From Candidatus Freyarchaeum deiterrae (GTDB lineage Archaea > Asgardarchaeota > Jordiarchaeia > Jordiarchaeales > Jordiarchaeaceae), in contig CP147778.1 in the NCBI GenBank assembly GCA_037305845.1, positions 256,001 through 320,000 on the forward strand: a DNA stretch of 64,000 bases. The letters are read 5' to 3'. The notes under the pieces were generated by a model that saw only the letters and a list, made by a program, of their open reading frames with translations, was not told the origin of the DNA and ran no database searches. This document shows, piece by piece, positions 18,872-46,110 of this stretch (position 1 is its first letter; every line of letters begins with the position of its first letter). The translations under genes and the position numbers were made by a program.

Positions 18872-19086
18872 CTGACATACTCCCCACCTTGAAAGGTTGG
18901 GGGTTCTACACTTCTGTTGTTAGAAGTGTGGGGGGCGTGTCACCGCCCGGTTAATGGCTTCCGCACCTTCTTCTTCGTCGGGTGAGCAAGCCCTATTATT
19001 TTTTTTCCTCTTTTTTCGGTATTTAAACTCCAAGCAATTCATTCCCGCCTTAAAGGGACCGGGGCTTTCTTGCCAATCATCTTTAG
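18872..19086 (-). mobile_element. Non-autonomous IS200/IS605 (IS608-like) mini-element, copy 1, with omegaRNA-like scaffold
   Basis: Minus strand: TTAC target (19087-19090), left end AAAG+CCCCGG hairpin, right end GAAC-CCCCAACCTTTCAAGGTGGGG-AGTATG-TCAG; four copies in the window. Confidence 0.9.
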
Positions 19087-19227
19087 GTAATTAAAAATTC
19101 AGGGTGCTTCTTACCTATTTCTTGAACGAAGGGAATTCATAAAGTCTATAATAATTTCAGATTTCTTGGTTTCAAATTAACTCTTCATGTGTTTCTTGTC
19201 GCTCTTTTACTTCTTCTTCTTTAATGC

Positions 19228-19599
19228 TTAGGGGTCATGAATTTCGAAATGTAAGTTTTTGCCATCCAAGACGATTTTAAAATTATTTAATATGTCTCTT
19301 CCAATAATTACTTCGTCTTGAGGTAATGCCACAACTTCTATAAACTCGAGCAAGAAATTGTTGAAATCTACATTAATATAGTAGGTCCATTCTTTAACTA
19401 GCCTTCCATAGACATCAATGTAATCTTTTTTTCTAACTTTTTGCAGACCGAGTTCAGCTATTAAGTTACTCGGAATGGCGGTGTCATCTGCACCTGTATC
19501 TAGGATTCCGTAATATTGTACATTATTACCAGAGATTGGGTTAAATATTGTCACTTTGATAGTTGGGGCTGGTGGATCTTTTATTGTGTCATATTTCAA
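19228..19599 (-). CDS. Retropepsin-like aspartyl protease
   Basis: ILDTGAD and IIGRDILN motifs. Confidence 0.88.
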   Translation of the reverse strand: MKYDTIKDPPAPTIKVTIFNPISGNNVQYYGILDTGADDTAIPSNLIAELGLQKVRKKDYIDVYGRLVKEWTYYINVDFNNFLLEFIEVVALPQDEVIIGRDILNNFKIVLDGKNLHFEIHDP

Positions 19600-19600
19600 A

Positions 19601-19915
19601 TTAGAGTCTCCTTGGGGCTGGCAGTCTAGCGGGTTTTTTTCCGTTTACTTTGTCCATGTAGATTGGGAGATAGCCATATTTTGTGTAGACTCTTTTTGCA
19701 AGTCTTATCTTATCCTCATCTGAGTCAATCACTTTTTCATTTAAAATAGCCACGTATTTACCCTTATACTTGTTGAGGAGACCCGTTTCTTGCATCTTCT
19801 CGAAGGCAAGTCTTTCCTTTTCAATATTTTGTAAACTTGTATCCACATTCTCTTTCATAGAATATTCCTCGGGAAATTTATAAGAGGCGTCAACATAACT
19901 GCGCAAATAATTCAA
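19601..19915 (-). CDS. DUF5678-type small protein, partner of the aspartyl protease
   Basis: KYKGKYVAILNEKVIDSDEDKIRLAKRVYTKYG. Confidence 0.8.
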   Translation of the reverse strand: MNYLRSYVDASYKFPEEYSMKENVDTSLQNIEKERLAFEKMQETGLLNKYKGKYVAILNEKVIDSDEDKIRLAKRVYTKYGYLPIYMDKVNGKKPARLPAPRRL

Positions 19916-20098
19916 ATACTTTAATCCTTTTCCTTAATTCGGAGCCAGAAAGTTGCAAGTGATTCCTAGTTAGGATAAAGATGCGAATTCATTCTCAAAG
20001 GATGAACTAAAACCTGACTCTGATATAATAAATCGCGCCTCAAGTCTTTTTTTATTTATCGTATAGATAAAAGTTTTGTGTTCTGCATTTCTTAATAG

Positions 20099-20317
20099 CT
20101 GACATACTCCCCTCCTTGAAAGGTTGGGGGTTCTACACTTCTATGTTATTGTTGTTAGAAGTGTGGGGGGCGTGTCACCGCCCGGTTAATGGCTTCCGCA
20201 CCTTCTTCTTCGTCGGGTGAGCAAGCCCTATTATTTTTTTTCCTCTTTTTTCGGTATTTAAACTCCATGCAATTCTTCCCCGCCCTAAGGGGACCGGGGC
20301 TTGCTAATCATCTTTAG
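20099..20317 (-). mobile_element. IS200/IS605 mini-element, copy 2 (4-bp deletion in the left end)
   Basis: Same ends as copy 1; TTAC at 20318-20321; longer loop in the ACACTTCT/AGAAGTGT hairpin; left-end guide reads CAAG. Confidence 0.9.
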
Positions 20318-20521
20318 GTAATTAAAAATTCGGGGTGCCTCTTACCTATTTCTTGAACGAAGGAAATTCATAAAGTATGATCTCATTTGTGGAGGGGGGC
20401 TTTTGATCTTGAGAGAAGGTATGCTTGGTTCATAATTTACCAGTAATATATATGGTTAAAATCTAGTTTGTGTGAGAAGAATTGGGTTGCTGTTGGGGAT
20501 TTTGTTTAGGGCTGGGTGCTG

Positions 20522-20965
20522 TTAGTATGGTATGGCTTTTGGGTTGAAGTACCATTTTTTTCCATCCTTTTTTAGGCTGTATTTTCCTTTGATTTCTTGG
20601 TAGATTTGTTTGGCTTTTTCCCATGTTCCGTCGTCTCTTAGTGGGATTCCTTCTAGGATGGCGTCTAGGATTACGAAGCTTGGTCTTCTTACTGTTTCTT
20701 CGAGTTCTTTTCGGGTGTAGATGAGTGCTTGGAGGGGGAACTGTGCGTGTTTGCTTATTGCTTTTTGGCGGTTGAGCCAGTTTCGGGGGAGGTTTCTGCA
20801 AACGATTATCATGTCCACGTCGCTGTGCTGGGTTGCGAGGTTTTTCGCGTGGCTTCCGAAGACGACAGCGGTTCTCAGACCGTGAGCCTGGTCAACTTCT
20901 TCTAGGAATTTCTCTATTTTTTCAGCGTATTTCTCCAGTGATGCGAGACCTGCAGTACTCAACAA
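20522..20965 (-). CDS. Minimal nucleotidyltransferase (MNT antitoxin)
   Basis: VVFGSHAK...SDVDMIIV motif; likely TTG start overlapping the HEPN gene end; the longer ORF start at 21094 is unlikely. Confidence 0.88.
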   Translation of the reverse strand: MLSTAGLASLEKYAEKIEKFLEEVDQAHGLRTAVVFGSHAKNLATQHSDVDMIIVCRNLPRNWLNRQKAISKHAQFPLQALIYTRKELEETVRRPSFVILDAILEGIPLRDDGTWEKAKQIYQEIKGKYSLKKDGKKWYFNPKAIPY

Positions 20966-21311
20966 TTCTTTCAGCACTCTTAACCGCCTCCTCAGCCATT
21001 TTCTTAGTGTAATGGTCGGATGGTGTACCCGAAGCAAAAGCGTCGGGATATCTTGAGGGAATATAGTGATGGTCAAGCTCTTTTGCGAGGTCAACTAGCT
21101 CCTCTGGAGCGTTTGTTTCTTCAACCATTTCGCCTACCGTGTGTCCCCTTACTTCCACTCCTCGGAACTGGAGAAGAGCCTTTACAGCCTTCTCGGCGGC
21201 GGCCTGCTGCGATGTAAAACACGCCCACTCGTAGTCTCCTTCGGAGAGGTCTCTTTTCGCCTTCGCCAAATCCCTCTCTGCTTGACGCAACCAGTCTAGG
21301 TGCCGCTTCAC
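20922..21311 (-). CDS. HEPN-domain toxin
   Basis: WLRQAERDL...WACFTSQQAAAEKAVKA...GH...YIPSRYPD. Confidence 0.92.
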   Translation of the reverse strand: MKRHLDWLRQAERDLAKAKRDLSEGDYEWACFTSQQAAAEKAVKALLQFRGVEVRGHTVGEMVEETNAPEELVDLAKELDHHYIPSRYPDAFASGTPSDHYTKKMAEEAVKSAERIVEYCRSRITGEIR

Positions 21312-21470
21312 GATTATCCCTCAAAACAGTTTCCTTATGCATTTTCACTGATGCTTTTAGAAGCCGAGTGTTATAAGCTTTCGTGTTCTATTCAGTAGTC
21401 TTCTTTTTTTAATCGTTTTTCTTCGTGCTCTTGCAGTTTGGTTTCCAATATGAGCGTATCTTTCTCGTCT

Positions 21471-21680
21471 CTGACATACGCCCCACCTTGAAAGGTTGAG
21501 GGTTCTACACTTCTGTTGTTAAAAGTGTGGGGCGTGTCACCGCCCGGTTAATGGCTTCCGCACCTTCTTCTTCGGGTGAGCAAGCCTTATTATTTTTTTT
21601 CCTCTTTTTTCGGTATTTAAACTCCATGCAATTCATTCCGGCCTTAAAGGGACCGGGGCTTTCTTGCTAATCATCTTTAT
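21471..21680 (-). mobile_element. IS200/IS605 mini-element, copy 3
   Basis: CTGACAT...AATCATCTTTAT followed by GTAA (TTAC on the minus strand) at 21681-21684. Confidence 0.9.
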
Positions 21681-21758
21681 GTAAGAATCGTTCCAGAAAT
21701 TCGTCAGTGAGGACTATCCTGTAGGATTCTCCGAATGGACCCGTTTTTTATCCTTTTT

Positions 21759-22091
21759 TCACTTTTGTGGGAACCAGCCTTCTTTTTGCATTACTTCCAT
21801 TGCAATCTGGTTGCTTGGGCTGTCTCCTCCGGCTACGTTGACTCCGACTTTTTCTCCTACTGTTTCTTGAATCTCTGCGATGTTTTTGTTTGTGAATCCG
21901 GGGCAGAGGATAATTGCGTGTATGCCCTCTTTTTTGACGTGGTTTTTGCACTCCTCCAGTGCTTGTTCTTGGCTTCTGACCACTACTACGAAGAGTTTGT
22001 ACTTGCCTGTTTCAATCACGCACCTGTTCTTCTTCGGCTCCGCGTCTGGGGCGTGGGCGAGGAAGAGCGCTTTAAACGCCATACCTACCAT
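21759..22091 (-). CDS. DUF6506-like protein
   Basis: AFKALFLAHAPDA...GIHAIILCPGF pattern; AGGAG RBS. Confidence 0.7.
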   Translation of the reverse strand: MVGMAFKALFLAHAPDAEPKKNRCVIETGKYKLFVVVVRSQEQALEECKNHVKKEGIHAIILCPGFTNKNIAEIQETVGEKVGVNVAGGDSPSNQIAMEVMQKEGWFPQK

Positions 22092-22217
22092 CTCCTATTT
22101 GGTGTGTAATACAGTACGAATAATTACCTAATTTATCCGTGCACATATATGTTTTGGGTTTCTCTTTTTTGTGATATGGAAAAAGTATTAATATTTGGGA
22201 ATGCTTTTGTTGATTTT

Positions 22218-23027
22218 ATGAGAATGGTGAAGTTGGGTAAGACCGGGGAGAAGATTAGTATCCTCGGGCAGGGTACTTGGGGTCTTAATCGTGGGAACTA
22301 TGAGCTGTTTAAGGATTCTTTGAGGAAGGGTATTGAGTTGGGTATGACTCATATTGATACGGCTGAGGTTTATGCTTGGGGTGTTGCGGAGCGGGCTGTG
22401 GGTGAGGTTGTTTCTGAGTATAATAGGGATGATCTTTTTATTACTAGTAAATTGTTTCCGATGCATGTTACTGATGGGCGTTCTAAGAAAGCCTGTTACA
22501 GTAGTTTGAAACGGTTAGGGTTGAAGAACGTGGATTTGTATTTGGTTCACTGGCCTATTCCTTCTACCATGAAGAGGATGATGAGGGTGATGGAGGCGCT
22601 GGTGAAGGAGGGGAAGACCCGGTATATTGGGGTTAGTAATTACTCGGTTGCACAATTCAAGAAGGCTCAGAGCTATCTCAAGAAGTATGAGCTTGTGGAT
22701 AATCAGTTGAAGGCTCATTTGGAGCATCAGGTTCACATTAATGAGTCTTTGCCCTTCTACCAGAAGGAAGGAGTGACGATGACCGCTTATAGTCCTTTAG
22801 CGCATTCCGGTTTCACAAAACTGGGGGGGAAGCTTGGAGAGAACTTGGAGAAGGTTGCGAAGAGTCATAAGGCTACGATTCAGCAGATTGCGATTGCTTG
22901 GCTTATTAATCATGATAACGTGATTGCTATTCCTAAGGCGTTTAAGGTGAAGCATGTGGAGTCAAATGCGGAAGCGGCTGATATTAAATTGAAAAAGGAA
23001 GACATTGAGTTACTTTCTACAAAATGA
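22218..23027 (+). CDS. Aldo/keto reductase
   Basis: LGQGTW, IDTAEVY, FITSK, DLYLVHWP, IGVSNY, AYSPL and IPK motifs; start at 22218 or 22224. Confidence 0.95.
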   Translation: MRMVKLGKTGEKISILGQGTWGLNRGNYELFKDSLRKGIELGMTHIDTAEVYAWGVAERAVGEVVSEYNRDDLFITSKLFPMHVTDGRSKKACYSSLKRLGLKNVDLYLVHWPIPSTMKRMMRVMEALVKEGKTRYIGVSNYSVAQFKKAQSYLKKYELVDNQLKAHLEHQVHINESLPFYQKEGVTMTAYSPLAHSGFTKLGGKLGENLEKVAKSHKATIQQIAIAWLINHDNVIAIPKAFKVKHVESNAEAADIKLKKEDIELLSTK

Positions 23028-23198
23028 AAATTATTTTTCAGTGTTGGGGTGAAGTTGGTCTGATTTTCAACTATTCCAACCATTGAGTTGATTGTTCCGT
23101 TTAATAGTGGGATGCCTGGGCTAATTTCGCCTTTTTGATTTTGATTTTCTATTATTCTATTTTAGATTACTCTTCTCTTTACTTTTCAATGTCAGTTT

Positions 23199-23576
23199 CT
23201 AGTGTATTTCTTGTCCGCACAATCCACAGTAACTGGCTCCTTCAATTATTTCAGCTCCGCAATGGGGGCATTTTGTAGATGTCGATTGTATAGTCGGGGC
23301 CTTACCGTCTCTGAGCATGTTGGATAATCCCAGGGCGACCAACATAGCTTTTTTTCCTTCGTAAGTGATTGTGAATTTTCCTTTCTTAGAAACGTCTATT
23401 AGGATTTTGTATCGCTCCTGACCAAACCAATAAACTGCCGCCAACGCCGGGGACAATGGAACCAATCCAGCGGCAACTGCTTTGCTACCAGGCCGGCCAT
23501 CCATTGCTTCCAGTGTGTTGTCCATTTGATTAAGACGGTATCCCAATTGTGTTAAGCGACTGCAGCATAATGTCAT
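23199..23576 (-). CDS. Zinc-ribbon membrane protein, paralog 1
   Basis: KGKFTITYEGKKA core plus CPHCG...YCGLCG; the frame extends upstream (SYETNYS) without a clear start. Confidence 0.7.
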   Translation of the reverse strand: MTLCCSRLTQLGYRLNQMDNTLEAMDGRPGSKAVAAGLVPLSPALAAVYWFGQERYKILIDVSKKGKFTITYEGKKAMLVALGLSNMLRDGKAPTIQSTSTKCPHCGAEIIEGASYCGLCGQEIH

Positions 23577-23947
23577 TATTTCGTCTGGCGAATAATTCGT
23601 TTCATAACTAAAACTTTTTGAAATTGCAAACCTCTCCTTTCATTCATTAATCCTCAATTTAATCCGCTTATTATTTTTAAAATATTTAAATTTTTAGGTA
23701 TCGGCATTGGTGCGGATTGAGAAGAAAAATGGGAAAAGGCGTTGAGTTTAATCTTCCTTTTTTTATGCGGTTTTTTGGACAGTGTGATTAATTGGTTCTT
23801 TATATCAAAATCATGATTGGTGGTGTGTTGTGGAGCTTTTTTATTTGCTGTATTGGGGTGTCTTGATTTGGCTGATTTTTATTCTTTTTGATTTGGTTTT
23901 TCTGTTTTAGATTACTTTTTACTTTTCAATATTTGCCTTTTCTAGTT

Positions 23948-24424
23948 CTAGTGTATCTCTTGTCCGCATTCTGCGCAGTAACTGGCTCCTTCTATTATAT
24001 GGAATCCGCAATTAGGACATTTTGTAGATGATGATTGTACTGTCTGGGCTTCGCTACTTCTGAGCATATTGGATAATCCTAGGGCGTCCTCAGTGGCTTT
24101 TTTGCCTTCATACATGATTGTGAATTTTCCTTTATTAGTGATGTCTATTATGATTTTGTTTTGCGTTCGAGTGAACCAATAGACGAGAATAGCTATCACG
24201 CCTATCAAGGTAATTGTTAAGATACCTATGACACATAAAATGATAGCCCCTGTACTGTAATCCCGGCCGTCAGTTGCTTTTAGTAAGTTTCCCTCTTGCT
24301 TAACATAGTATCTCCCTCTTAAGCGACTGCTGCATTCTGCTATTATTTCATCTCGCGAATAATCGGTTTCATAGCTTAAACTCATTAGGATCACAACCTC
24401 CATATTCGTTAACTGGTCCTGCAT
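23948..24424 (-). CDS. Zinc-ribbon membrane protein, paralog 2
   Basis: Hydrophobic hairpin, KGKFTIMYEGKKA, CPNCG...YCAECG. Confidence 0.8.
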   Translation of the reverse strand: MQDQLTNMEVVILMSLSYETDYSRDEIIAECSSRLRGRYYVKQEGNLLKATDGRDYSTGAIILCVIGILTITLIGVIAILVYWFTRTQNKIIIDITNKGKFTIMYEGKKATEDALGLSNMLRSSEAQTVQSSSTKCPNCGFHIIEGASYCAECGQEIH

Positions 24425-24640
24425 CTATGGTTAGGGGATGCCTGTTGAGAAAAGTCACGGAAAGAGTTGAAATTATTCTTCTCAGGAAACCATTTATCTT
24501 TCCTTTTTACCTTGATCCTTTCATCTCCGCCTTGATTTTTCGAATCCCCATTAAATGTTAGTCTCCGAAAAAATTGTTATTGAACTCTGGCTATTATTAA
24601 TCCGTTCGTATTATCTTTAAAGCTATATAAATTTTTAGCT

Positions 24641-24860
24641 AGCGGCTGATATTAAATTGAAAAAAAAGGAAATTGAGTTATTTTCTACTGCCAAGAAGTG
24701 AAATTGTCTTTCGATGTGGAGGTAAAGGCTCTTATCTTGTTTTTAACTATTCCAACCGAGATTTTATTGTTTTGTTTAATTTTTGGATTTTTTGGCGTGG
24801 CTTATTTTTTCTTTTTGATTTTTTTCTGTTTTGGATAGGTTACTTTTTAGTTTTCGATTT
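24641..24860 (+). repeat. Diverged duplicate of the aldo/keto reductase 3' end and its downstream intergenic DNA (22973-~23190)
   Basis: AGCGGCTGATATTAAATTGAAAAA is identical; encodes AADIKLKKKEIELFSTAKK* versus AADIKLKKEDIELLSTK*; shared AACTATTCCAACC downstream. Confidence 0.85.
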
Positions 24861-24950
24861 CCGCGTCGAGCGTGATATGTCTTGTCCGCATTCTGCACAG
24901 TAACCGGCTCCTTCTAATATCTCGGCTCCGCAATTTGGGCAGTTTATAGA

Positions 24951-25328
24951 TCATGATTTTGTTTCTGTCTCATCAAATTCGCCACTTCTGAGCACATTTG
25001 ATAATCCTAGGGCTAAATCGGTGGCTTTTTTGCCTTCATATGTGATTGTGAATTTTCCTTTTGTAGACATGTCTATTATGATTTTGTTTTGCGTTCGAGT
25101 GAAATAATAGGCTAGTAAGACTATCAAACCTATTATCAAGGTAAAAAGGCAGAGTATGACACATGCAACGATGATTCCTGTGCTGTAGTCTCGGCCATCC
25201 GTTGATCTTACTAAGTTTCCTTCCTGCCTCGTGTGGAATCCTGATTTTGGTAAGCGGCTATTGCATTCTGCTACTATTTGGTCTCGTGTATAATCTGTTT
25301 TATAAGTAAGACTCGTTAGAATCACCAA
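24951..25328 (-). CDS. Zinc-ribbon membrane protein, paralog 3, truncated by a TGA before its zinc ribbon
   Basis: The in-frame continuation after TGA reads SINCPNCGAEILEGAGYCAECGQDI. Confidence 0.8.
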   Translation of the reverse strand: MVILTSLTYKTDYTRDQIVAECNSRLPKSGFHTRQEGNLVRSTDGRDYSTGIIVACVILCLFTLIIGLIVLLAYYFTRTQNKIIIDMSTKGKFTITYEGKKATDLALGLSNVLRSGEFDETETKS

Positions 25329-25574
25329 CCTCTCTACTCATTAACTAATTCTCAATTTAATCCAGTTTATTATTTTTTAGACTATATAAATATTTAGCTG
25401 AGGGCAATGATGCCTATTGAGAAGAAAAACGGGAAAATTCAAAGCACAATTTAAGCCTTTTTTCTGCGGTTGTTTGGATAGTATGATTAATTGCCTCGTC
25501 TATCTCAAAATATTCATTGGGACGTAGAGTTGGAGGTGGTGTTTTTACTTGCTGTATTCGGGTTTTGACTCTAG

Positions 25575-25919
25575 TTAGTTTAATTTTTCTCCGCAGCTTG
25601 GGCAGTAATTTACTGTCTCGTGTAGCCCGTAGCCGCAGTATGTGCAGACTTCTTCTTTTGCTTTCGGAGAGGTTAGCGTCTTGAATAGATTCACTGCGTC
25701 TTCTAAGGCCTTTTTTCCTTCGAAGGTTATGGTGAATTTTCCTTTTGTTGTAGCATCCACCTTAATCTTGTTATCTTTTTCATCGGGCATGTTTGCTTCT
25801 ATTACGTTACCCTTTGTGTCGGTTTCGTATCCCTTCTCTTTTAGGTAATCCCCGGATACTGTTATTACTTCATTCTGTTTGTATCCTGTTTTATAATTTA
25901 GACTCATTGGGATTTTCAC
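25575..25919 (-). CDS. Zinc-ribbon protein, paralog 4, lacking the membrane hairpin
   Basis: SLNYKTGY, KGKFTITFEGKKALEDA, CTYCG...YCPSCG. Confidence 0.8.
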   Translation of the reverse strand: MKIPMSLNYKTGYKQNEVITVSGDYLKEKGYETDTKGNVIEANMPDEKDNKIKVDATTKGKFTITFEGKKALEDAVNLFKTLTSPKAKEEVCTYCGYGLHETVNYCPSCGEKLN

Positions 25920-25988
25920 TCCCCTTATTCATTTATAGCATATTGTAAGGGTCGAGAATATTTGTTTTTCGTTTTTGTCAAGTGAACG

Positions 25989-26543
25989 CTAATTCTTTGG
26001 GGCTAATCGTTCTTGGTGGTTTGGATTTGGGTAGGTTAGTTTTCCGTTTTCTATTTTGGCGAAACTTGGGAGTTCATGTGCTATTACCTTTCCTTTGTCG
26101 ACTATGTGGGTGACTTGGTGTCTTTTGACTGTTAGATAGTCCGAGATTATTCTGCGGTGACATTGCCAGTAGAGTTTTTCTGCGCACATGATGGCGACTC
26201 TCTGTTTTTCTGCGAGGCTGAGTAGTTTTTCAGTTCCTCTTTCGAATTCTTGGGTTTGGGTGTGGTCGGCGTAGTTTCTGAAGCTTTCATCAGTCCAAGC
26301 TTTGTTGGGTGATTCCTCGCCCAGTCCCTTTTTTCGGTAGCCTCCCAGCTCTTCTCCTAGCCACAGGTATTTGATTCCCTTCTCCTCCAAGCTTTTTTGC
26401 AGGTTTTCCCGGTTGAATTGTGGGTTGCGTTTGGAGCCGGGTAGGCTTCGTACATCAACTAGGACTTGTATGTCGTGTTCCTTTAGGAGGTCGTAGAACT
26501 CTTCGAAAGTTCTGGTGGAGTGTCCTATGGTGAATATTTGCAT
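25989..26543 (-). CDS. DUF488 family protein
   Basis: IFTIGHS, LVDVRSLP, IMCAEK...CHRRII. Confidence 0.92.
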   Translation of the reverse strand: MQIFTIGHSTRTFEEFYDLLKEHDIQVLVDVRSLPGSKRNPQFNRENLQKSLEEKGIKYLWLGEELGGYRKKGLGEESPNKAWTDESFRNYADHTQTQEFERGTEKLLSLAEKQRVAIMCAEKLYWQCHRRIISDYLTVKRHQVTHIVDKGKVIAHELPSFAKIENGKLTYPNPNHQERLAPKN

Positions 26544-26766
26544 TGGTATTCTATCCTTTAGAGGATTTTTGGGGGATTCATTATGTTATAATTTTAATTC
26601 ATTGTAACTTTACTCAGAATGGCTATCACTTACTTATTTAAAATTGTCTTTATCTGGATTTGAACGCAGATTTATTTTTGCCTTATGGGTTCTAGGTGGA
26701 GTGGTGCAAACGTAAGGTAGAAAAGCCAGCTCAGGCATGGAACAAAATATAGGAGTGATATTTCTT

Positions 26767-27099
26767 ATGTCAGAAGTAGCAAAGAATGGTGACACAGTCC
26801 GTGTGCACTACGTGGGGAAATTCCCCGGTGGAAAAGTATTTGATACATCCATGGAGAAAGAAGCGATCCGCGCCGGCATAGCCCAAAAAGGGCGGGATTA
26901 CAAGCCTCTTACAGTCAAGTTAGGCTCTGGGCAGGTCATAAAGGGGTTTAACGACGCGATTATCGGAATGAAGAAAGGGGAGGAGAAGACGGTTACCCTT
27001 CCTCCTGAACAAGCGTACGGGAAAACAGGCAAACATCCCATGGCCGGCAAGACTCTGCAATTCAAACTCGTCTTAGTTGACATCGTTCCTGGAAAATAG
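26767..27099 (+). CDS. FKBP-type peptidyl-prolyl isomerase
   Basis: GDTVRVHYVG...VFDTS, GQVIKGF, PEQAYG, HPMAGKTLQF. Confidence 0.93.
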   Translation: MSEVAKNGDTVRVHYVGKFPGGKVFDTSMEKEAIRAGIAQKGRDYKPLTVKLGSGQVIKGFNDAIIGMKKGEEKTVTLPPEQAYGKTGKHPMAGKTLQFKLVLVDIVPGK

Positions 27100-27100
27100 T

Positions 27101-27225
27101 TGAGACACGGGTATAAGAGACCGTGTGCGAAGACCCGCGTGGTAAGAATCAAGCAACCCTACGAGAGTAGAGCGTGTCACCGCTCCGTTTCTGGCTTCCG
27201 CACCATCAGTGTGAGCCAGCCTTAT
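27101..27225 (-). ncRNA. Putative structured RNA homologous to the mini-element omegaRNA-like scaffold, without transposon ends
   Basis: Minus strand GGCTGGCTCAC..GGTGCGGAAGCC..GAGCG-GTGACA-CGCTC versus GGGCG-GTGACA-CGCCC in the elements (compensatory change); an upstream TAATAATA box sits at the same spacing. Confidence 0.6.
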
Positions 27226-27255
27226 TACTCTTTTTTTTATACTTTTGGGGTATTA

Positions 27256-27459
27256 TTACCATTCGCAGTTCTTGCCTTTGCAGTATCCGTATTCTACCCA
27301 GGCTTTGGCGTCGACTGCTTTTGACCTTTGCCCTCCGTGTCTTGATGTTCTGTCACTGTATGGTGTTGGCTTGGTGATTTTTCGGGCCTGGATTACTATT
27401 CTTTTTCCTATTATTGCATCATTTTCGTCATCGTGATAGTTTATGCAGGAATCCTCCAT
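27256..27459 (-). CDS. Small hypothetical protein, possibly truncated
   Basis: ATG directly follows the upstream stop, with GGAGG in the upstream gene end; no recognisable motif. Confidence 0.35.
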   Translation of the reverse strand: MEDSCINYHDDENDAIIGKRIVIQARKITKPTPYSDRTSRHGGQRSKAVDAKAWVEYGYCKGKNCEW

Positions 27460-27837: not shown

Positions 27838-28045
27838 TTATAGCAACCTCATTTCTCCCTAGTGGGGCTTCATTAATTTGTTGCAAATCATAAAAATGGT
27901 GGCGCGGCTGAGTCAACCATTTATTATTGGAATTGAATCGATTGATTTTATTAAAGCTTTTTATTCAAGATTTCTGATACTAAGTTTGAGAGTGATTCCG
28001 AATACTTTGAAACGAGTAATCAAGTGATTTTAGGGAGAATATAGT

Positions 28046-28804
28046 CTAACTGTTATCTTTAAGGAGATACTCTTTAACCGTCCAACAATGCTCTTCATCT
28101 ATCCAGAACCCCCTAGAACGTAATATGTATTCGTTCCACCCCAGAATGGATATTATATCTTTTAAAACCCAGCCCTTATCATCCCCTAGAGGAAGAGCCT
28201 TTGATAAAAGTTTGCTCTCCTTCGTATTCTCCTTCCCTTTCACGATAACGAGGCTATTATGCTCGTCGCACCCTCTATCTAGTTTTGAGTGAGCATTGTT
28301 GGGTACATCGCTGAAATATGATTCTTTAACCGTCTTCGTTTTTCCTCTGAAGTCGTATACCTTTTCCACGGTGAAATAGGCTATGAAGTACGTTCTAATT
28401 TTACCCTTCTCTGTTTCTGCCATCTTTCTTAGTCCGGCGTAGAATATTAGTAGGTCACCTTTTTCTAGTTGGGACATCTTTTGCGCTTTCTCCTTGGCGG
28501 GGTCTCCGTAGGTGAATGTCGTGAATTCGGGATCGTTGTGTGGATGATGGTTCCTATATTTGGGGGGCGTAAACTCGGCTAGATATCTGCTGCTTCTTCC
28601 CATGATATCCGTGTATGTTTGCTTCTCGGATGTTGGGCAGTGTTCTGGACTGTGGGGTATTGGAATGTACTCAAACGTTCCGTCTGAGAATAGGGGTGCT
28701 ACGCATCCGCCTGTTTGGGTATCGATTCCTACTCTTATCAGTAGACCTACTTGCGCTTCCCCTTTCGGTCTACCCCACTTTGCGGGTTTCCATTTTTTCA
28801 GCAT
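28046..28804 (-). CDS. Nmad3-like (nucleotide-modification-associated domain 3) protein
   Basis: RVGIDT..GG...PLFSDGTFEYIPIP, HNDPEF..FTYGD, GDLLIFYAGL, NNAH. Confidence 0.8.
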   Translation of the reverse strand: MLKKWKPAKWGRPKGEAQVGLLIRVGIDTQTGGCVAPLFSDGTFEYIPIPHSPEHCPTSEKQTYTDIMGRSSRYLAEFTPPKYRNHHPHNDPEFTTFTYGDPAKEKAQKMSQLEKGDLLIFYAGLRKMAETEKGKIRTYFIAYFTVEKVYDFRGKTKTVKESYFSDVPNNAHSKLDRGCDEHNSLVIVKGKENTKESKLLSKALPLGDDKGWVLKDIISILGWNEYILRSRGFWIDEEHCWTVKEYLLKDNS

Positions 28805-37933: not shown

Positions 37934-38029
37934 ATGATAACAAAACTCGTCTCCTTCAACCACAGTCTGTAAAAAGTTGTGGATGATATTAATCAAGCGA
38001 AACTTCATGAGTTTAATGTTGGTTGTTTT

Positions 38030-38962
38030 TCATATTGGTGCGGGGTAGGGCATCCCTCTCCTGAGTTCTGCAGCTTCAACAGTGTTTTCGACTCTTTTGA
38101 CGGTATCTTCGTCAACATCCAGCTCTCTTGCTATTTCGTCGCTTCTCATTCCTTTTTCTAAACAGTATAGTATGGGATCTAGTGTTTCGTATTTTATACC
38201 TATTATAGTTTCAGCCGTGGCTATTGTTCCCAAGATCATATCGGGACTTGAAGGTTTCTCTGTTATGTTTTTTGGGACTCCTAGGTACTCACCGAACTGT
38301 TTTACCTGAGTTTTGTAAAGGTTCTTAATCGGCGCGATTTCGGCGGCTCCGTCCCCATGTTCATCATAATTACTTACAAGCCATTCCGTCTTGGTTGACG
38401 TTCCTACGACTAATAGTTTTCTTAGACAGCCCTGATGGAAGAGTATTACGCTTCTTAGTCTTACTTTTGGAAGGACGAAGCAGTACGCGCGCGTACCGGC
38501 CTTGAAGTCAATTATTGGTAAATATTTTGGTTTGGCTTCGAAAGTGGCCGATCTAAATGTTTCTGCTAGCCGCTCCATGAGTAACTTTTTATCCTTCACG
38601 ATTTCGTCTGTAAGTGAATCGTATACTCCTATTTTCCTAAGTATCGGGGTTAGATCAAACGTCTCATACTTTATTTTCAGTTTTTTGGCCAGCTGCTCCG
38701 CATCTTTCATGTTTTGTGGTTCGCTGTCTCTATCCGGCATCAAAAGACCAAACACTTTATCGGGCCCTAAAGCCCTAACACTTAAAGCAACCGTAACACT
38801 CGAGTCCAGACCACCACTCAGACCAACAATAGCACCTTCTTTCCTGAAACTTTGGACAGAACTCCTTATAAAATCCTCAATTTTTTCAGACACGGACTCA
38901 TAATCCAGTGTTAATGACTCGTAAATAGAGGCTTTCATAACAACCCTCCTTTTGGCAACCAC
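38030..38962 (-). CDS. nadE: NH3-dependent NAD+ synthetase
   Basis: GLSGGLDS, HGDGA, LYKTQV, KPSSPD. Confidence 0.92.
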   Translation of the reverse strand: MVAKRRVVMKASIYESLTLDYESVSEKIEDFIRSSVQSFRKEGAIVGLSGGLDSSVTVALSVRALGPDKVFGLLMPDRDSEPQNMKDAEQLAKKLKIKYETFDLTPILRKIGVYDSLTDEIVKDKKLLMERLAETFRSATFEAKPKYLPIIDFKAGTRAYCFVLPKVRLRSVILFHQGCLRKLLVVGTSTKTEWLVSNYDEHGDGAAEIAPIKNLYKTQVKQFGEYLGVPKNITEKPSSPDMILGTIATAETIIGIKYETLDPILYCLEKGMRSDEIARELDVDEDTVKRVENTVEAAELRRGMPYPAPI

Positions 38963-39099
38963 TCCACTATAGAGTAGAATAGAAGAAAAACATAGACCTC
39001 ATTTCTGAGGAATATATTTTGGACTTTAATTTGGAGTTCTTTTCTAATAAACTCTACTGTTATCCCGCTATTACAGTTTTTATAGTGGTCTTGGAATGC

Positions 39100-40560
39100 T
39101 CACTCTATAGGTGTAAATCTGGTCTGTATGTCTCTTTCTGAGATATTCAAGCCTGTTATGTACATTTTTGTTTTGGGGATCTCTCCGTAAAACACGATGC
39201 TCCCGTCTATATTTTCGAATTTGAGGTAAGATGACGCCACTTGAGTTGGCAGTCTTAAATTCTCGTGTCCGAATTGAAACATTATCATGATACCGTTTAG
39301 TTGTTTTATTCTTTCAATCCAAGTTTGAATTATTTTTGTAAGCTCCTTCGTTCCATAAATGTACGCCATTGTGTCACTTGCAATTGTAACAAAGATGGTA
39401 TCCGCTTGAACCTCGTCTAAAACTTTAACAGCCAACTCTGTTAAACTATTAAGATCTTCGATGAAATTTTCTCCCTTCAAAAAGTGTGTATCATACGTTT
39501 CAGTATTAAGTGGAGCGTTTTCTGAGGGTAAGAATACATGGAAACATTTCTTTAAATACTTAAGAGAATTATCTCCTAAAGAAGAGACTAACTTTTCACC
39601 TAAATCAGAGGAGGGTTCACTTTTTACAACATCATAGGAGAAGAGACCCTTAGAGGGAATGGTAAAGACAGGATAGCCCTGAAGGACGAAATTTAAAAAT
39701 ATGGGGCTCACAATACCAGCGTGGTCTGACCCCACCATGTTACCTATATCTAGTACGTTGAAGGATTTCCTTTCGAAGCCTCCTCCCAATATTTTGTCTA
39801 ACTCAGTTACTAAAGTGGGAATTTTTAATCCTTTCTTCTTTTCAAATTTTGGTAATTCCGCACGTACAACGTTTATTTTAATACCCTTATCAAAGGCCAT
39901 AAATCTGCCATCTTTGAGAGTAAAAAGATAAGTGGGGTATTCTATTTTTGTTCCTCTAACTTTTTCAATGTACAATTTTCTTAAAAGTCTTCCATTCACG
40001 ACCTCTTTTTCCAGCCTTATTACTCCGTCCACAAGATAGTCCAATTTACTTTCCGAAGATAATTCACTTATGAAAATTACTTTAGCATTTAATTTATTTG
40101 CGATTTCTAGGATATCACTTTCCATGCTAAAGTCATCACATGGAATTTTCAGATTTGATTTTAAGGCGTCCAAACTGTCCACAATAATGCTGGTTTTTTC
40201 TCCTTTAGAATCCATAACCCTTGAGTACAAACTTCTCAAGAAACTTGGTTTATCAACGTATTCAAAAAGTGCTTCTTGCTTAGTGTCAGAATACAAGTTG
40301 GCATTAGCGTCTAAAACGTTTTCTTGGTGAATACAAGACTTAGACCATGGAAACTGTTCGTAGAGTCTTTCGGGAGAAACCCTTGTCGACAAGTACACCG
40401 CCCTGCAATTCTCTGGAAAAAGCCTCAAAAGTTCGAGGGCCATGGTGGTTTTACCTGTACCGGCATTGCCCTTAATGTGAAGAGAGAAGGTACGAGATTC
40501 TAATGCTTGAATAATTTCCTGAGGAACATTTAGGGTTAAAATAGCTAACCGCACCCCCAT
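39100..40560 (-). CDS. GvpD/KaiC/RAD55-like double RecA-fold ATPase
   Basis: GNAGTGKT, IIVDSLD, YLVDGVI, IEKVRG; the second domain (ELDKILGGG) has a degenerate P-loop. Confidence 0.85.
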   Translation of the reverse strand: MGVRLAILTLNVPQEIIQALESRTFSLHIKGNAGTGKTTMALELLRLFPENCRAVYLSTRVSPERLYEQFPWSKSCIHQENVLDANANLYSDTKQEALFEYVDKPSFLRSLYSRVMDSKGEKTSIIVDSLDALKSNLKIPCDDFSMESDILEIANKLNAKVIFISELSSESKLDYLVDGVIRLEKEVVNGRLLRKLYIEKVRGTKIEYPTYLFTLKDGRFMAFDKGIKINVVRAELPKFEKKKGLKIPTLVTELDKILGGGFERKSFNVLDIGNMVGSDHAGIVSPIFLNFVLQGYPVFTIPSKGLFSYDVVKSEPSSDLGEKLVSSLGDNSLKYLKKCFHVFLPSENAPLNTETYDTHFLKGENFIEDLNSLTELAVKVLDEVQADTIFVTIASDTMAYIYGTKELTKIIQTWIERIKQLNGIMIMFQFGHENLRLPTQVASSYLKFENIDGSIVFYGEIPKTKMYITGLNISERDIQTRFTPIE

Positions 40561-40849
40561 AAATTGGTTTTTAAATCACATTTTTTGAGGTTTTAAGAAT
40601 GTAGTTTATAGATTTGTAAGTTATCATACCATAATGTTTCTTTTTTTTGTGAAATCGACAAAGTTATTTGAGAATATCAAAAAAGCAAAACTACATTTCT
40701 AAGAAATTACTTAGAATTCATTCTTATATTTCTATCTCCCTCTATTTCCTCTGGAAAAATGCTGTAAGGTGTAAAATCTATTTAAACAACCCTTTAGGGT
40801 AAAAAATCAATAATCAAAATGGCTATCTGACAAAGCATTGAGACGTCTA

Positions 40850-41602
40850 TTACATTTTTCCCTCCTGCCTCAATCTTCGAAGAAGTGGGTCTTCAATTCC
40901 TGCTTCCTCAAATCCTTTAGCTCTCAGAATACAGGAATCGCATTCACCGCAGGGAACCTCTCCGCCCTTGTAGCAGCTCCAAGTCCATTCTAGGGGTGCA
41001 TTTAACTGGGTTCCTAACTCCGCTATTTCCTTCTTGCCCTTGTAGAGAAGTGGAGTTTCTATTTTCATTTCGACATTATACTTGGTTCCAACTTTGCTTG
41101 CAACCTTCATCAGTTCGTTGATTTTCTCGTAAAATTCTGGTCGGCAGTCGGGGTAACCGGAATAGTCTAATGCGTTTGCAGCTATGAAAATTCTGGCTTC
41201 TATCTCCTTCGGTTTAATTTCGTCTTTTTCTATTTTGTACAGGATTTCGGATTCAAGATAAGCTGCGGCTAATGTAATGAGGAAGGTATTCCTCAGGGGG
41301 ACGTAAGTTATGGGGATGTCCTCTGCCATTTCCTCAGTACTTCGCCCTTCGGGAACAGCGAACAATTCAGGGGTGGTCAGTGCACTGTACCAGGCTACCT
41401 CATTGAATTGTGAAACGTTCACCACTTTGTGTGGTATGTTCAATTTTTCAGCGACCAGCTGAGCACATTTAACCTCCTTACTTAACCTCTGCCCGTAGTG
41501 AACTGTGAGAGCGTAGACTTCGTAGCCTAAACTTTTGGCATAGGCTGCGGTGGTTGTGGAGTCTAAACCTCCACTTAACAGTACGACACCTATCTTAACC
41601 AT
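40850..41602 (-). CDS. queC: 7-cyano-7-deazaguanine synthase
   Basis: LSGGLDS, TYVPLRN, YSGYPDCR, WSCY...CGECDSC. Confidence 0.96.
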   Translation of the reverse strand: MVKIGVVLLSGGLDSTTTAAYAKSLGYEVYALTVHYGQRLSKEVKCAQLVAEKLNIPHKVVNVSQFNEVAWYSALTTPELFAVPEGRSTEEMAEDIPITYVPLRNTFLITLAAAYLESEILYKIEKDEIKPKEIEARIFIAANALDYSGYPDCRPEFYEKINELMKVASKVGTKYNVEMKIETPLLYKGKKEIAELGTQLNAPLEWTWSCYKGGEVPCGECDSCILRAKGFEEAGIEDPLLRRLRQEGKM

Positions 41603-41675
41603 AAATACTCTCCTCAACTATCTAGGTACCCCGATGTACACTATAAAAGTATGTCGATGGCACTATTAGAGTGTA

Positions 41676-42401
41676 TCACAGGTTTTCTTCCATTTTGCTC
41701 TCCTTAATATTCAGTTTTCCTTTCAAGTTCATGATTGTGATTATGGACTTGTGTGTTCCATCTTGGTCTCTGCTGAACACTAATTTAGCCCATTTGATGG
41801 ACGGATCGGACTGGTATTTCTTCTTAAGCTCATTAGCTCTCAAGAACGACTTAACCAATACTCTTTTTCTCCGTTCATTCGATTCAAATGAGTCATACAT
41901 TGAGTAGAGGCGTCCTGCAACGACCATCTTAACTTTGGGATTCCGAAAGTCCAGGTAAATCATATCCGCATCCACCGATTTGAAGAGCACGCCAAGAAGC
42001 CATTCCACCCGCCAATCCTCACTCGGCAAAGGGTTGGGGGACCTAGCATACTCTATATGCTCAGCGCCCCAGACGAAGAAGGGTATCACATCAATCATTC
42101 TGGCCACAGATTCTACTCCTTCTGGTGGAGGGAAGGGGCTTTCGAACTCGATTTCATATTCGCCTTTACCAACAGCCTCATCCAGAGCTTCGGTTAATTC
42201 GTCTACAAAGCTCTTCATGTCTTCAGCGGTTGGATCTTTGCGTTTAAACGCGTCTCCGTGATGTAGATAAATGACTCTATCGCCCTCAACCAAAGATTCT
42301 TCGCTGGGCATATCGTCAATAATCTCTCTGAGATCCACTTCCAAGAACGCGTTCAGATTCTCTATAACGCCTTTTTCCAAATTCCAATCTATATCAACCA
42401 T
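41676..42401 (-). CDS. Hypothetical protein
   Basis: 241-aa ORF with normal composition; no motif recognised. Confidence 0.7.
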   Translation of the reverse strand: MVDIDWNLEKGVIENLNAFLEVDLREIIDDMPSEESLVEGDRVIYLHHGDAFKRKDPTAEDMKSFVDELTEALDEAVGKGEYEIEFESPFPPPEGVESVARMIDVIPFFVWGAEHIEYARSPNPLPSEDWRVEWLLGVLFKSVDADMIYLDFRNPKVKMVVAGRLYSMYDSFESNERRKRVLVKSFLRANELKKKYQSDPSIKWAKLVFSRDQDGTHKSIITIMNLKGKLNIKESKMEENL

Positions 42402-42609
42402 GACGCTCTAACCGCCCTTCAACAGTCTCATCCTCAAAATATCTTTACTTATCTTAATCATAAGAGGACGTTCTTGCTAGAATCTATGTAACCAAAGAAT
42501 AAACAGATAATTATGTTGAGTATGAGAGAATAACAGCAGACGAAAATTACACTCATCATGCAAAAATAATTAATAGTAGGATTTAAAGTATATATAAGCA
42601 AAAAGGTAG

Positions 42610-42915
42610 GTGGTTAAAATGGCTGAAGACCCTTTGAAGGTTTATGAAAAATGGGATCCAGAGATTCGCAAGCAGGTTGAAAATACCCGGCATCTTGCCT
42701 TTAAAGATGGATCATTACCGGGTAAAATTAAGATTCTCATAGCGTTGGCTTTAGACGCTTCCCACGGATCCGTTCTAGGCGTTAAGGCATTGGCTAACGC
42801 AGCAATGAAAGCTGGAGCTTCTAAAGCGGAGATCGGAGAAGCTTTAAGAGTAGCCGTATACGTTTGCGGGGCGGGAAGTGCTTTCACAGCTGCACAAGCC
42901 CTTAGGGAATTATAA
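42610..42915 (+). CDS. Carboxymuconolactone decarboxylase (CMD/AhpD) family protein
   Basis: DGSLPGKIKILIALAL...AMKAGASKAEIGEAL. Confidence 0.88.
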   Translation: MVKMAEDPLKVYEKWDPEIRKQVENTRHLAFKDGSLPGKIKILIALALDASHGSVLGVKALANAAMKAGASKAEIGEALRVAVYVCGAGSAFTAAQALREL

Positions 42916-43098
42916 TAAATCGCGTACGGCTACTCCACACTTTCACGATAATTGTTAAACCTTATAAATTCGAAATCTACAAAGATTACGTAAGAAGAAG
43001 TAACGCCAAAAGGTAGTGGAAAAAAGATTCCACTTATTTAGGAGGAAGTGCATAGAGTAATCAGGCTGCATTTTCCAAATTTTTATGGGGGACAACTC

Positions 43099-43545
43099 AT
43101 GAGTTTTGCGGCTAATGATTTGGATTTCGACGTTTTGAGGGAGCCCTGGAATATTTATCAGCTTGAAGAGGGCCCTATTCTGCGAGTTAAATACGTGTTA
43201 ACGAGGTTTGTAAGGCAAAAGGATGCTGGAGGGCTTGTTGGCTACGCTTTCAAGGGCCAAAACGTTGTTTCCTTATCTCACTTTCCCGAAGAATTGAGAG
43301 GCTCTCCCTCGCCCAGAGTGTACAGTTCAGAGGAACTTCAAGCCTCTATAGTTAATGAGAGTGTTCGATACTCAACACTTGTGGAGGAGTGGAACGAATA
43401 CGTTGCTGAGGATGGAGCAAACATAAGATTAAAAATAACCATAACGCAAGTGTGCAAGACAAACAAAACTGATAGTGACGGAGAACCCATATACCTGGTT
43501 AAAACCTCCTTGCTCCCACAAATAACCCCTCCCAAAAAATCATAA
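43099..43545 (+). CDS. Hypothetical protein with an internal two-fold repeat
   Basis: EPWNIYQLEEGPILRVK and EEWNEYVAEDGANIRLK. Confidence 0.75.
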   Translation: MSFAANDLDFDVLREPWNIYQLEEGPILRVKYVLTRFVRQKDAGGLVGYAFKGQNVVSLSHFPEELRGSPSPRVYSSEELQASIVNESVRYSTLVEEWNEYVAEDGANIRLKITITQVCKTNKTDSDGEPIYLVKTSLLPQITPPKKS

Positions 43546-43656
43546 AACTAATTATTTTGTGCTTAGTATTTTTTGGGCAAAAGAGTAATTAGATTGAGGT
43601 GGAGTAGTTTTTATAGAAGGAAGAAATACGAGGGTTATGGAAAGTAGGCAAGTCTT

Positions 43657-44994
43657 GTGGTGTTAGAAATGGTTGAAGTGACTTTTTATGGTGGGGTTGG
43701 AGAGGTCGGTGGAAACATGTTCCTTCTGCGTGACGGGGATACCAGGGTTTTTCTGGACTTCGGTATGAACTACGCCTCAAGGAGAAACTTTTACACCTGG
43801 CCTGCTCTACAACCGAGAGACGAGAGAGGATTGCTGAATTTCGGACTCATACCCAACCTAACTGGAATATACAAATATGATGAAAAGTCTGAGCCGAGTA
43901 TTGATGCTGTTTTCCTCACCCATGCTCACGGGGATCACACCGGCTATGTCCCATTAATTAAAAGAGAGATTCCTATTTACTGCGGCGAGACCACCAGCCT
44001 CATGATGAAGACACTCGCCGCCACCGGTAGAAGTAAAAACTTTGAGAAGGACTTGACCGGAATAGAGTGGAAAACATTTAGGACCGGAGATCACCCAAAA
44101 GTCGGAGACATAGAAATTGTTCCGATACATGTAGACCATTCTGTTCCCGGAGCGTATGGTTTCATAATTCACACCTCTGAGGGAACCTTAGTTTACACTG
44201 GAGATTTAAGGACACACGGAACAAAACCCGAGTTAACTGAGGATTTTGTGAAAAAGGCGGCAGAGGAGAAGCCCGAAACTGTTATTTGTGAGGGCACAAA
44301 CATTATGCAGGCGAGGGTCTCAAGTGAAAGTAATGTGGAGTTGGAGCTTAACACAGTAGCAGCCAGTACCCCGAATATCATGTTAACCAGCTTCGGTCAC
44401 AACGACATTGACAGGCTTAGAACATTCTACAACGTAGCCCAAAAGAATGACCGGTACCTTGTTATTTCCTTGAAGCAGGCCTACCTGCTAAGAGAACTCC
44501 AAAAAGATCAAAAACTAGACGTCCCAGATGTAACTGGAAACAGGTTCATAATCTTAGACGAGGAGAATACAAGAAACAAGTGGGAGAGGGATGAAATTCA
44601 GAAATATAACAACACTAAAACCGTTGCGGAGATTGCGAAAATTCAGAACAAATTGATTTACGTCCTATCTCAGTTCGACTTAAACGACCTAGTAGACATT
44701 AAACCCGAGGCTGGCGGCGTATACGTCTACTCATCCTCAGAACCCTTCACGGAGGAAGGAGAAATAGACTTTGAGCGGCTGAAAAACTGGCTAGCCAGCT
44801 ATGGACTGCCACTCTACCAGATACACGTCTCAGGTCACATAATGCCCCATGAACTCAGAGAAATATTAAAAGAAATCCAACCAAAAAAACTAGTACCGGT
44901 GCACACCGAATATCCTGAAACATTCAAGAAATACTTTGAAAAAACAATCGAGATAAAACTGCCCACAAAAAACCAACAAATGAAAATTTTCTAA
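43657..44994 (+). CDS. Metallo-beta-lactamase/beta-CASP RNase J-like nuclease
   Basis: GGVGEVGGN, THAHGDH, VDHS, YTGD, HVSGH, PVHTE. Confidence 0.92.
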   Translation: MVLEMVEVTFYGGVGEVGGNMFLLRDGDTRVFLDFGMNYASRRNFYTWPALQPRDERGLLNFGLIPNLTGIYKYDEKSEPSIDAVFLTHAHGDHTGYVPLIKREIPIYCGETTSLMMKTLAATGRSKNFEKDLTGIEWKTFRTGDHPKVGDIEIVPIHVDHSVPGAYGFIIHTSEGTLVYTGDLRTHGTKPELTEDFVKKAAEEKPETVICEGTNIMQARVSSESNVELELNTVAASTPNIMLTSFGHNDIDRLRTFYNVAQKNDRYLVISLKQAYLLRELQKDQKLDVPDVTGNRFIILDEENTRNKWERDEIQKYNNTKTVAEIAKIQNKLIYVLSQFDLNDLVDIKPEAGGVYVYSSSEPFTEEGEIDFERLKNWLASYGLPLYQIHVSGHIMPHELREILKEIQPKKLVPVHTEYPETFKKYFEKTIEIKLPTKNQQMKIF

Positions 44995-45115
44995 AAATAA
45001 TTTGAATCGCTCTTTAGAGAAAAACAAGATGTAAATCTGTGAATGCTTGTTACGCTCGATTCTATTTAATACTGAACGTAGGTTTTAGCTAAGGTGGATA
45101 AAATTGGTAAGAAAA

Positions 45116-45562
45116 ATGAAAGTGTATCTGGACACATCGGTGATTTCTGCATTGTTTGATGATAGGAACCCAGAGAGGAAATCACTCACAGAGTCTTATA
45201 TTATGCAAGTTGAAACTTTTGAAGTGTATATTTCAGAGATTACAGTTGCCTAAATTAATAGAACTCTGGACTCGGAACTTCGGAACAAAATGAGAAAAAA
45301 GGTATCGCAGTTTTCAGTGCTTTCTCTAACCGATGATGTGAAGTGGTTAGCAGAGCAGTATATTCGCTATGGTGCAATTCCCGAGAGTTATCAAGAAGAT
45401 GCGTATCACATTGCTGTCGCTGTTATAAATGAGATGGACTTCCTTTTAAGTTGGAATTTCAAGCATATCGTAAGGATAAAAACAAGGGATATAGTGAGGA
45501 TGGTAAACACTTTAAATAATCTAAGACAAATAGTAATCATAACGCCAGCGGAATTGTTATAG
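45116..45562 (+). pseudogene. PIN-domain (VapC-like) toxin with an in-frame TAA
   Basis: MKVYLDTSVI...ISEITVA*(45251-45253)...DAYHIAVA...SWNFKHI. Confidence 0.88.
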
Positions 45563-45573
45563 GATGCGAAATA

Positions 45574-45750
45574 ATGAGCAAAATCAGTGAGAAAGATATT
45601 GAAAAAATAAAAAGAGTGGTTGAAAAGGAGTTCCCAAATGATCCAGCTTTACAACAAGTTCACATTGCAAGAAAAATTATAGCCAAAGAGGCGGAACTCG
45701 AAGGGTTAAGTTTTCTTGAATATGTCAAATTGTTAGGAAAGCAAATTTAG
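45574..45750 (+). CDS. Small protein, putative partner of the PIN toxin (not in the ORF track)
   Basis: 58 aa, MSKISEKDIEKIKRVVEKEFPNDPALQQVHIARKII...; starts 11 bp after the PIN stop. Confidence 0.7.
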   Translation: MSKISEKDIEKIKRVVEKEFPNDPALQQVHIARKIIAKEAELEGLSFLEYVKLLGKQI

Positions 45751-45873
45751 AGTTTCTAACAATTATTTGACTATAATACACGATGCTTTTTAATTCTACA
45801 CCAGTTCCATATGTACTAGATTCGCGCCATAGGATAAGTGGTGTCTCACAAACTAACAGAACTCTTCAAATAA

Positions 45874-46081
45874 CTGACATACTCTCCACCTTGAAAGGTT
45901 GGGGGTTCTACACTTCTACTGTTAGAAGTGTGGGGCGTGTGCCACCGCCCGGTTAACGACTTCCGCACCTCTTTCGGGTGAGCAAGCCTTATTATTTTCT
46001 TTCCTCTTTTTCCGGTATTTAAACTCCCGCAATTCATCCTCGCCCTAAAGGGACCGAGGCTTTCTTGCTAATCATCTTTCT
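45874..46081 (-). mobile_element. IS200/IS605 mini-element, copy 4 (most divergent)
   Basis: Same ends; TTAC at 46082-46085; compensatory CCTCG/CGAGG change in the left-end hairpin. Confidence 0.9.
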
Positions 46082-46110
46082 GTAAGCCAAAAAATAATTC
46101 TCATAAGCAT

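Follow-up and report, generated by a model that had tools for sequence, protein, structure and literature searches.

Miniature tnpB-derived elements retaining an omegaRNA scaffold and the parental TATA box in an Asgard archaeon

The stretch of DNA analysed in this work (the window, 64,000 nucleotides) covers positions 256001-320000 of the closed genome (3,576,204 bp) of the Asgard archaeon Candidatus Freyarchaeum deiterrae (Jordarchaeia/Freyarchaeia), and contains four intact copies of a mini-element (mini) of about 210 bp. A single internal deletion in a tnpB element of the IS1341 type brought together its first ~85 bp, comprising the left end and a TATA box, and its final ~125-145 bp, which hold the scaffold of a TnpB guide RNA (omegaRNA) and the right end. 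The resulting unit then spread, and is found behind TTAC at many unrelated positions. The copies are almost certainly palindrome-associated transposable elements (PATEs), i.e. derivatives of IS200/IS605 elements without an open reading frame (ORF). We also consider it likely that they are selfish PATEs with a complete omegaRNA gene, and that a TnpB supplied in trans cuts the empty allele, by which the copy would be restored.

All intact copies lie on the minus strand: copy A at 18872-19086 (215 bp; left end, TATA box, omegaRNA scaffold and right end), copy B at 20099-20317 (219 bp), copy C at 21471-21680 (210 bp), and copy D at 45874-46081 (208 bp). Their pairwise identity is 91-97%, and BLAST E-values of about 1e-106 or lower place the repeat family far beyond chance. 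An earlier note on this DNA had described four minus-strand copies of ~210 bp, and the observed lengths of 208-219 bp, the TTAC directly 5' and the terminal TCAG agree with that description in all four, as do the guide sequences that it quoted for them. Its count is right for the intact copies, but overlooked a fifth, decayed relic (E, minus strand, 27077-27300 with approximate edges), in which the 5' half of the scaffold still matches the scaffold model (E 3.5e-7) and the transposon ends are gone. Three sequence details each hold for all copies except one: the AAAG left guide is damaged in copy B (CAAG, through a 4-bp deletion), the AGTATG preceding TCAG is CGTATG in copy C, and the TGACA loop is TGGCA in copy D, giving a G-U pair in the pseudoknot. 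The coding content of the minis is merely the last ~40 tnpB codons, located within the scaffold, and the copies are too short for a transposase or TnpB. Genome-wide searches placed no tnpA or tnpB in the window, as had been claimed.

Two 1.4-kb elements of the same genome, at 2434938-2436345 (+) and 3247879-3249298 (-), contain tnpB only (IS1341 type) and share the ends of the minis. Mini positions 2-86 are 85-90% identical to the left ends of these parents, and positions from ~90 to the end are 79-85% identical to their right ends. A single junction is common to all minis, located directly after the TTTAAATA box of the parent, at the N-I-G codons following RuvC-III. Since the identical junction is also present in three copies in the sister species and in one metagenome contig, one deletion created the mini unit, which then spread. 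Among metagenomes, the scaffold pattern was found at 37 loci, one of which has the same junction, and the exact junction pattern gave no match.

The genome as a whole holds eight intact minis (85802, the four window copies, 841232, 947854, and 2246535) and about seven damaged ones, i.e. one decayed full-length copy, two whose right hairpin is cut, and about four older relics. The minis at 3054052 and 3055571, truncated within the right hairpin, have no TCAG and an altered TATA box, and are located between tandem repeat-protein genes (3052900-3057950). A distinct right end for these two was considered and rejected, because a tandem duplication cuts inside the right hairpin. A third paralog of these genes has an empty TTAC site; it is the sole empty paralogous site found, a single case in which the neighbouring copies are guide-less.

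The termini follow an end code of the IS608 type. In copy A, on the minus strand, the target tetranucleotide TTAC, which is the predicted target-adjacent motif (TAM), occupies 19087-19090; the left-end DNA guide AAAG, equal to the IS608 left guide (GL), lies at the base of the left hairpin (19065-19068); and the right-end DNA guide GAAC, the partner of the terminal TCAG, lies at 18903-18906. GAAC starts exactly 35 nt from the right end in all four copies, and the right guide of IS608, GAAT, also sits at -35. The earlier assignment of GAAC/TCAG to this code is corroborated by the relatives, where guide and cleavage site covary (GAAC/TCAG 27, GAAT/TCAA 25, other 3). TTAC precedes 53 of 56 related left ends, consistent with insertion behind a set tetranucleotide and no duplication of the target. 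It is found exactly at the junction in the empty site L187, the ortholog of the copy A site, and the paralogous empty site at ~3057905 in this genome ends in TTAC as well, where each comparison covers one flank, the other being rearranged. The ends are hairpins, with subterminal palindromes and without terminal inverted repeats. A miniature inverted-repeat transposable element, bounded by inverted terminal repeats, was ruled out because no inverted repeat of at least 25 nt links the ends. The many unrelated insertion sites imply past mobility of the minis. Elements with tnpA, tnpB and the matching left-end type (Y1 TnpA) are present in sister genomes, and we infer that the minis were mobilised in trans by a Y1 TnpA in the past.

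The TATA-like box TTTAAATA of copy A (19020-19027, minus strand) originates from the tnpB parent, and is a putative promoter element with a predicted +1 near 18997. The corresponding boxes lie at 20255-20262 in copy B, 21614-21621 in copy C and 46016-46023 in copy D, with scaffolds that start at 20227, 21586 and 45988, respectively. The box had been noted ahead of the stems, and its end is indeed located 27 nt before the GGCTT helix in each of the four copies. Across 12 minis from three sources, the spacing between box and P1 is 27-28 nt, while loops take indels; non-consensus cells amount to 3% in the TATA box, 3.5% in P1/P2 and 4.7% in P4, in comparison with 17% in the spacer and 18% in the region before the box. 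Two relatives have an ATG 23 nt behind the same box, a distance at which a leaderless archaeal start is expected. The TATA box is predicted to be placed so as to start a transcript about 5 nt ahead of scaffold P1, and the minis are probably transcribed. The earlier view of purpose-built expression cassettes was overstated: the promoter is the parent's own, which the deletion brought beside the scaffold, and the guides are flanks of the insertion sites.

The omegaRNA scaffold of copy A (18872-18992, minus strand, 121 nt) is composed of a P1/P2 helix, a pseudoknot hairpin, P4 and the right-end hairpin, and is homologous to the region overlapping the 3' end of tnpB. The stems named in the earlier note were recovered in predicted folds, with z-scores of -2.0 to -3.8 versus shuffles; in copy C the minimum-energy fold deviates and the centroid retains the named stems. 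Over 36 distinct scaffolds, 93.9% of cells are paired, versus 38-54% in slid controls. The covariation check suggested for the internal stems found two-sided changes at 14 of 34 pairs (P1/P2 5, P3 2, P4 4, right hairpin 3), counts that are not to be read as probabilities, as the set consists mostly of tnpB-bearing relatives and the sequences are related. The five pairs of the pseudoknot are 100% paired in the 36 sequences, four being invariant and one varying one-sidedly (AU 16, GU 19, GC 1); because it is almost invariant, covariation is no test of it. The sequences are compatible with, and do not prove, a pseudoknot between the stem-loop and the scaffold 3' end, which is a known feature of omegaRNAs. 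A search of Rfam gave no family at threshold, and the resemblance of the right-end hairpin to HgcC (RF00062) amounts to 16.7 and 14.2 bits (E about 1-4.5) for a gathering score of 50.

A compatible candidate for the TnpB that was expected to act in trans is encoded elsewhere in the genome. The parent gene at 2435100-2436356 codes for a TnpB of 418 amino acids (NF040570, 142 bits with a cut-off of 100), the model of which (predicted local distance difference test, pLDDT, 79) has a fold matching TnpB 8h1j, Fanzor2 and Cas12f. Its RuvC-II motif has a glycine, G282, and an alternative glutamate, E330, is located 48 residues further. Twelve relatives all have D192, G282, E330 and D364 unchanged, and the putative active-site residues D192/E330/D364 are kept. 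A rearranged RuvC site, as in this D-E-D parent, is active in TvTnpB (PMC10530073). The proportions of nonsynonymous and synonymous differences between the two parents (pN 0.031 vs pS 0.213) imply past purifying selection on tnpB.

The other TnpBs of the genome were rejected as cognates, with 23-37% identity over partial matches and different ends. Solo tnpB families with unrelated ends are located at 459588, 1217578, 1345939 and 2615104; at 2253075 and 2502073; and at 3154973, four having GYN at RuvC-II. A cluster at 2611500-2627500 contains an IS607 element (serine TnpA and tnpB), another tnpB and small antitoxin/toxin-like ORFs. It also has a solo right end (2617793) and, 8.5 kb away on that strand, a half left end (2626283). 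The only resolvase-type TnpA in the genome was dismissed as a candidate transposase for the minis, being part of an IS607 element with an unrelated tnpB.

If the minis are selfish elements that persist by means of a TnpB, the sequence of events would be as follows. A Y1 TnpA acting in trans would have spread them by peel-and-paste as in IS608, with AAAG reading TTAC and GAAC reading TCAG. Transcription from the TATA box would begin about 5 nt ahead of the scaffold and run through TCAG into the flank, yielding an omegaRNA of ~135-155 nt with a site-specific guide. The TnpB of the 2435100 parent may bind this RNA and cut solely the empty allele (TTAC + guide). The occupied allele would then serve as the template for repair, by which the mini is regained after excision or in an empty sister. 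The scaffold would thus be kept for the element's own retention. In our estimation the scaffold has probably been selected for guiding TnpB, at least in the past of this lineage; that the minis are still working with the TnpB of this genome we put slightly below an even chance.

All guides are ordinary insertion flanks. The predicted RNA guide of copy A (18852-18871, minus strand) lies within a broken antitoxin-like gene on the plus strand, i.e. the gene that the copy interrupted. A genomic self-target (TTAC+guide) was found neither at 12 nt exact nor at 14 nt with one mismatch, and two 16-nt, two-mismatch guide matches in AT-rich DNA were judged to be chance. The four guides had no match in IMG/VR at 16 nt exact, and a search for viral copies of the mini found none. 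The absence of targets in the genome and IMG/VR is as expected if the guides derive from insertion flanks and serve retention.

It is unlikely that the minis are silent relics, in which the scaffold and TATA box would be passengers of a chance deletion, alike through recent spread or recombination with the parents, and no functional RNA would be made. The failure to find a TnpA in the genome and the decayed copies fit such relics, as does a sister-species mini (L030) that bears the right half of the local parent, suggesting recombination. However, the spacer, although fixed in length, diverges about five times more than the TATA box and stems of the same copies, and several independent junctions spare the scaffold. 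Moreover, an end-based search of the closed genome found no two-ended element without a scaffold, and a short-range pattern, at chance level, found no scaffold-less PATE in three sister genomes. Alternatively, the RNA might be made and act mainly as a sink or regulator that titrates TnpB or TnpA, with the guide being irrelevant. A competitor role of this kind has been proposed for Halobacterium PATE RNAs (PMC4615843), and the ratio of minis to catalytically complete tnpB is 8:1; we nevertheless regard it as highly unlikely, as the full scaffold is retained including the pseudoknot partner beside the guide, and selfish retention accounts for the conservation without a host benefit. The location of several copies among toxin-antitoxin-like modules of a variable region could also be taken to indicate a guide repertoire that the host has domesticated, in the manner of a dispersed CRISPR array, against viruses, plasmids or its own genes. 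This is extremely unlikely, since the guides are plain insertion flanks without matches in the genome or IMG/VR, and at the loci checked, sister species have no mini in the corresponding position.

Several points weigh against selfish retention by a TnpB, in addition to the make-up of the covariation set and the invariance of the pseudoknot described above. In the second parent, the Asp of RuvC-I is replaced by Asn, and in the catalytically complete parent a G->T change abolishes the stop codon (15 extra residues) as well as the GAAC right guide. The old copies at 2966157, 2509248 and 1634754 and the window relic E have decayed, implying that single minis are not retained long. A genome-wide test of TATA position gave a broad signal with merely 17 tRNAs parsed, and was uninformative. 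At least five further ORF-less families in relatives (G005 with 79 model hits, G004, G003, L051, and L054/L022) have right breakpoints 0-45 nt ahead of the scaffold, which speaks for selfish retention, but the pattern is biased by the fact that they were found via the scaffold model. Finally, the search for tnpA and tnpB with the same ends, which the earlier note had called for, succeeded for tnpB (two elements) and failed for Y1 TnpA, which was not found genome-wide by PF01797, NF033573 or a sister-species TnpA query. The minis are therefore probably immobile, i.e. stranded, at present.

The concept is already published, and the copies are a clean example of a described kind of element and no new system. 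The PATEs of Haloquadratum walsbyi arise from tnpB elements by core deletion, and the minis resemble them in having no ORF, no terminal inverted repeats, subterminal palindromes, a 4-nt target, an internal deletion of a tnpB element, and a missing or broken TnpA (PMC3119063). Some haloarchaeal PATEs consist of ends only (52 bp), whereas the minis keep the full scaffold and the parent promoter in every two-ended copy. For the omegaRNA-encoding PATEs of Geobacillus stearothermophilus, Meers et al. (bioRxiv 10.1101/2023.03.14.532601) state that omegaRNAs are often encoded by PATEs in general and depend on a TnpB provided in trans by other IS elements, and the same model is considered here; in contrast to them, our copies reside in an Asgard archaeon with an archaeal TATA box about 27 nt before the scaffold and a rearranged RuvC-II, and no TnpA was found. 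The stand-alone omegaRNAs of OMEGA systems are mobilised, effector-less, present in genomes with effector loci and work in trans (summarised in PMC10691335); the minis are likewise effector-less with effector loci in the same genome, and are candidates for such trans activity. The transcribed PATE RNA VNG_R0052 of Halobacterium derives from fused left and right ends (PMC4615843; also sotRNAs, Rfam HgcC RF00062) and includes left-end sequence, whereas the start predicted here is downstream of the left end. The TTAC target and the AAAG left guide are shared with IS608 of Helicobacter pylori (PMC5934647). The right guide is at -35 in both; the minis have GAAC/TCAG for GAAT/TCAA and are without tnpA and tnpB.

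Particular to the present case are the tight TATA-scaffold register across species, the empty-site check, and the indications that copies have recombined within a region rich in toxin-antitoxin genes. If transcribed, the minis would be natural minimal omegaRNA genes. They would delimit the scaffold (about 115-130 nt) on its 5' side and predict TTAC as the TAM of an uncharacterised clade of archaeal TnpBs whose RuvC site is rearranged, so that this nuclease could readily be tested. Whether TnpB-driven retention acts in trans on guide-only elements, as is stated in the literature but called biologically unresolved there, could likewise be examined with them in a simple way.

Among the other ORF-less families, the distance between promoter and scaffold varies, being about 30 nt in G004 and about 90 nt in G005. 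The 79 scaffold hits in the sister genome G005 (L120, L123, L144-L162) belong mostly to a family of ~280-bp minis, in which the tnpB start codon and the 5' leader hairpin are kept. A separate family of about 430 bp (L054:7100-7550 (+), L063, L022) has a ~180-nt GC-rich segment, not derived from tnpB, between promoter and scaffold, which may be an extra RNA domain. At about 820-900 (+) of L057, a 5' scaffold part occurs that neither tnpB nor a recognisable right end accompanies.

Copy A is located inside an antitoxin-like gene (window 18670-18871 (+), weak VapB match; orthologs L181, L182, L185, L187), which is intact in three sister genomes together with a PIN-domain partner. A CT run within the 5' half of the interrupted gene carries a frameshift. 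The 3' half is absent, as is the PIN toxin gene, and a flank shared with copy B is found instead. This left-end flank (19087-19145, with a second copy at 20318-20376) is about 56-59 bp long and 95% identical. Replacement of the original flank of copy A by the one shared with copy B suggests recombination between the minis. Transposition of the region from C to A into the antitoxin gene as a composite unit is unsupported, the 3' half of the antitoxin gene not having been found beside any left end. Between B and A lies a DUF5678 + retropepsin-like gene pair (19228-19915, minus strand), and between C and B a pair of HEPN and nucleotidyltransferase (MNT) genes (20522-21311, minus strand). Copy D, together with a small partner ORF and a PIN gene that contains an internal stop (45104-45562), is flanked on both sides by an 84-bp direct repeat (96% identical; 44904-44987 and about 46108-46191) of the 3' end of a metallo-beta-lactamase-fold gene (43657-44994), and the whole looks like an integrated 1.2-kb cassette.

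It is conceivable, if very unlikely, that in Jordarchaeia deletions bringing the TATA box into register with the start of the omegaRNA recur and are selected, and that guide-only elements serve in addition as recombination anchors building or reshuffling arrays of toxin-antitoxin cassettes. TnpB cuts at empty alleles would then copy neighbouring cargo along with the mini. This conjecture draws on the left flank shared by A and B, the replaced flank of A, the toxin-antitoxin-like pairs between C, B and A, and the presence of copy D and a PIN module in the 84-bp duplication.

The variable region with the minis also contains DUF488 (25989-26543) and Nmad3 (nucleotide-modification-associated; 28046-28804) genes. 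At 23197-25919 (-) there is a tandem of four paralogous small genes, some with a C-terminal zinc ribbon, and an ORF at 57150-59090 encodes a 38-aa repeat protein, with at least six 114-bp tandem repeats at 58097-58966.

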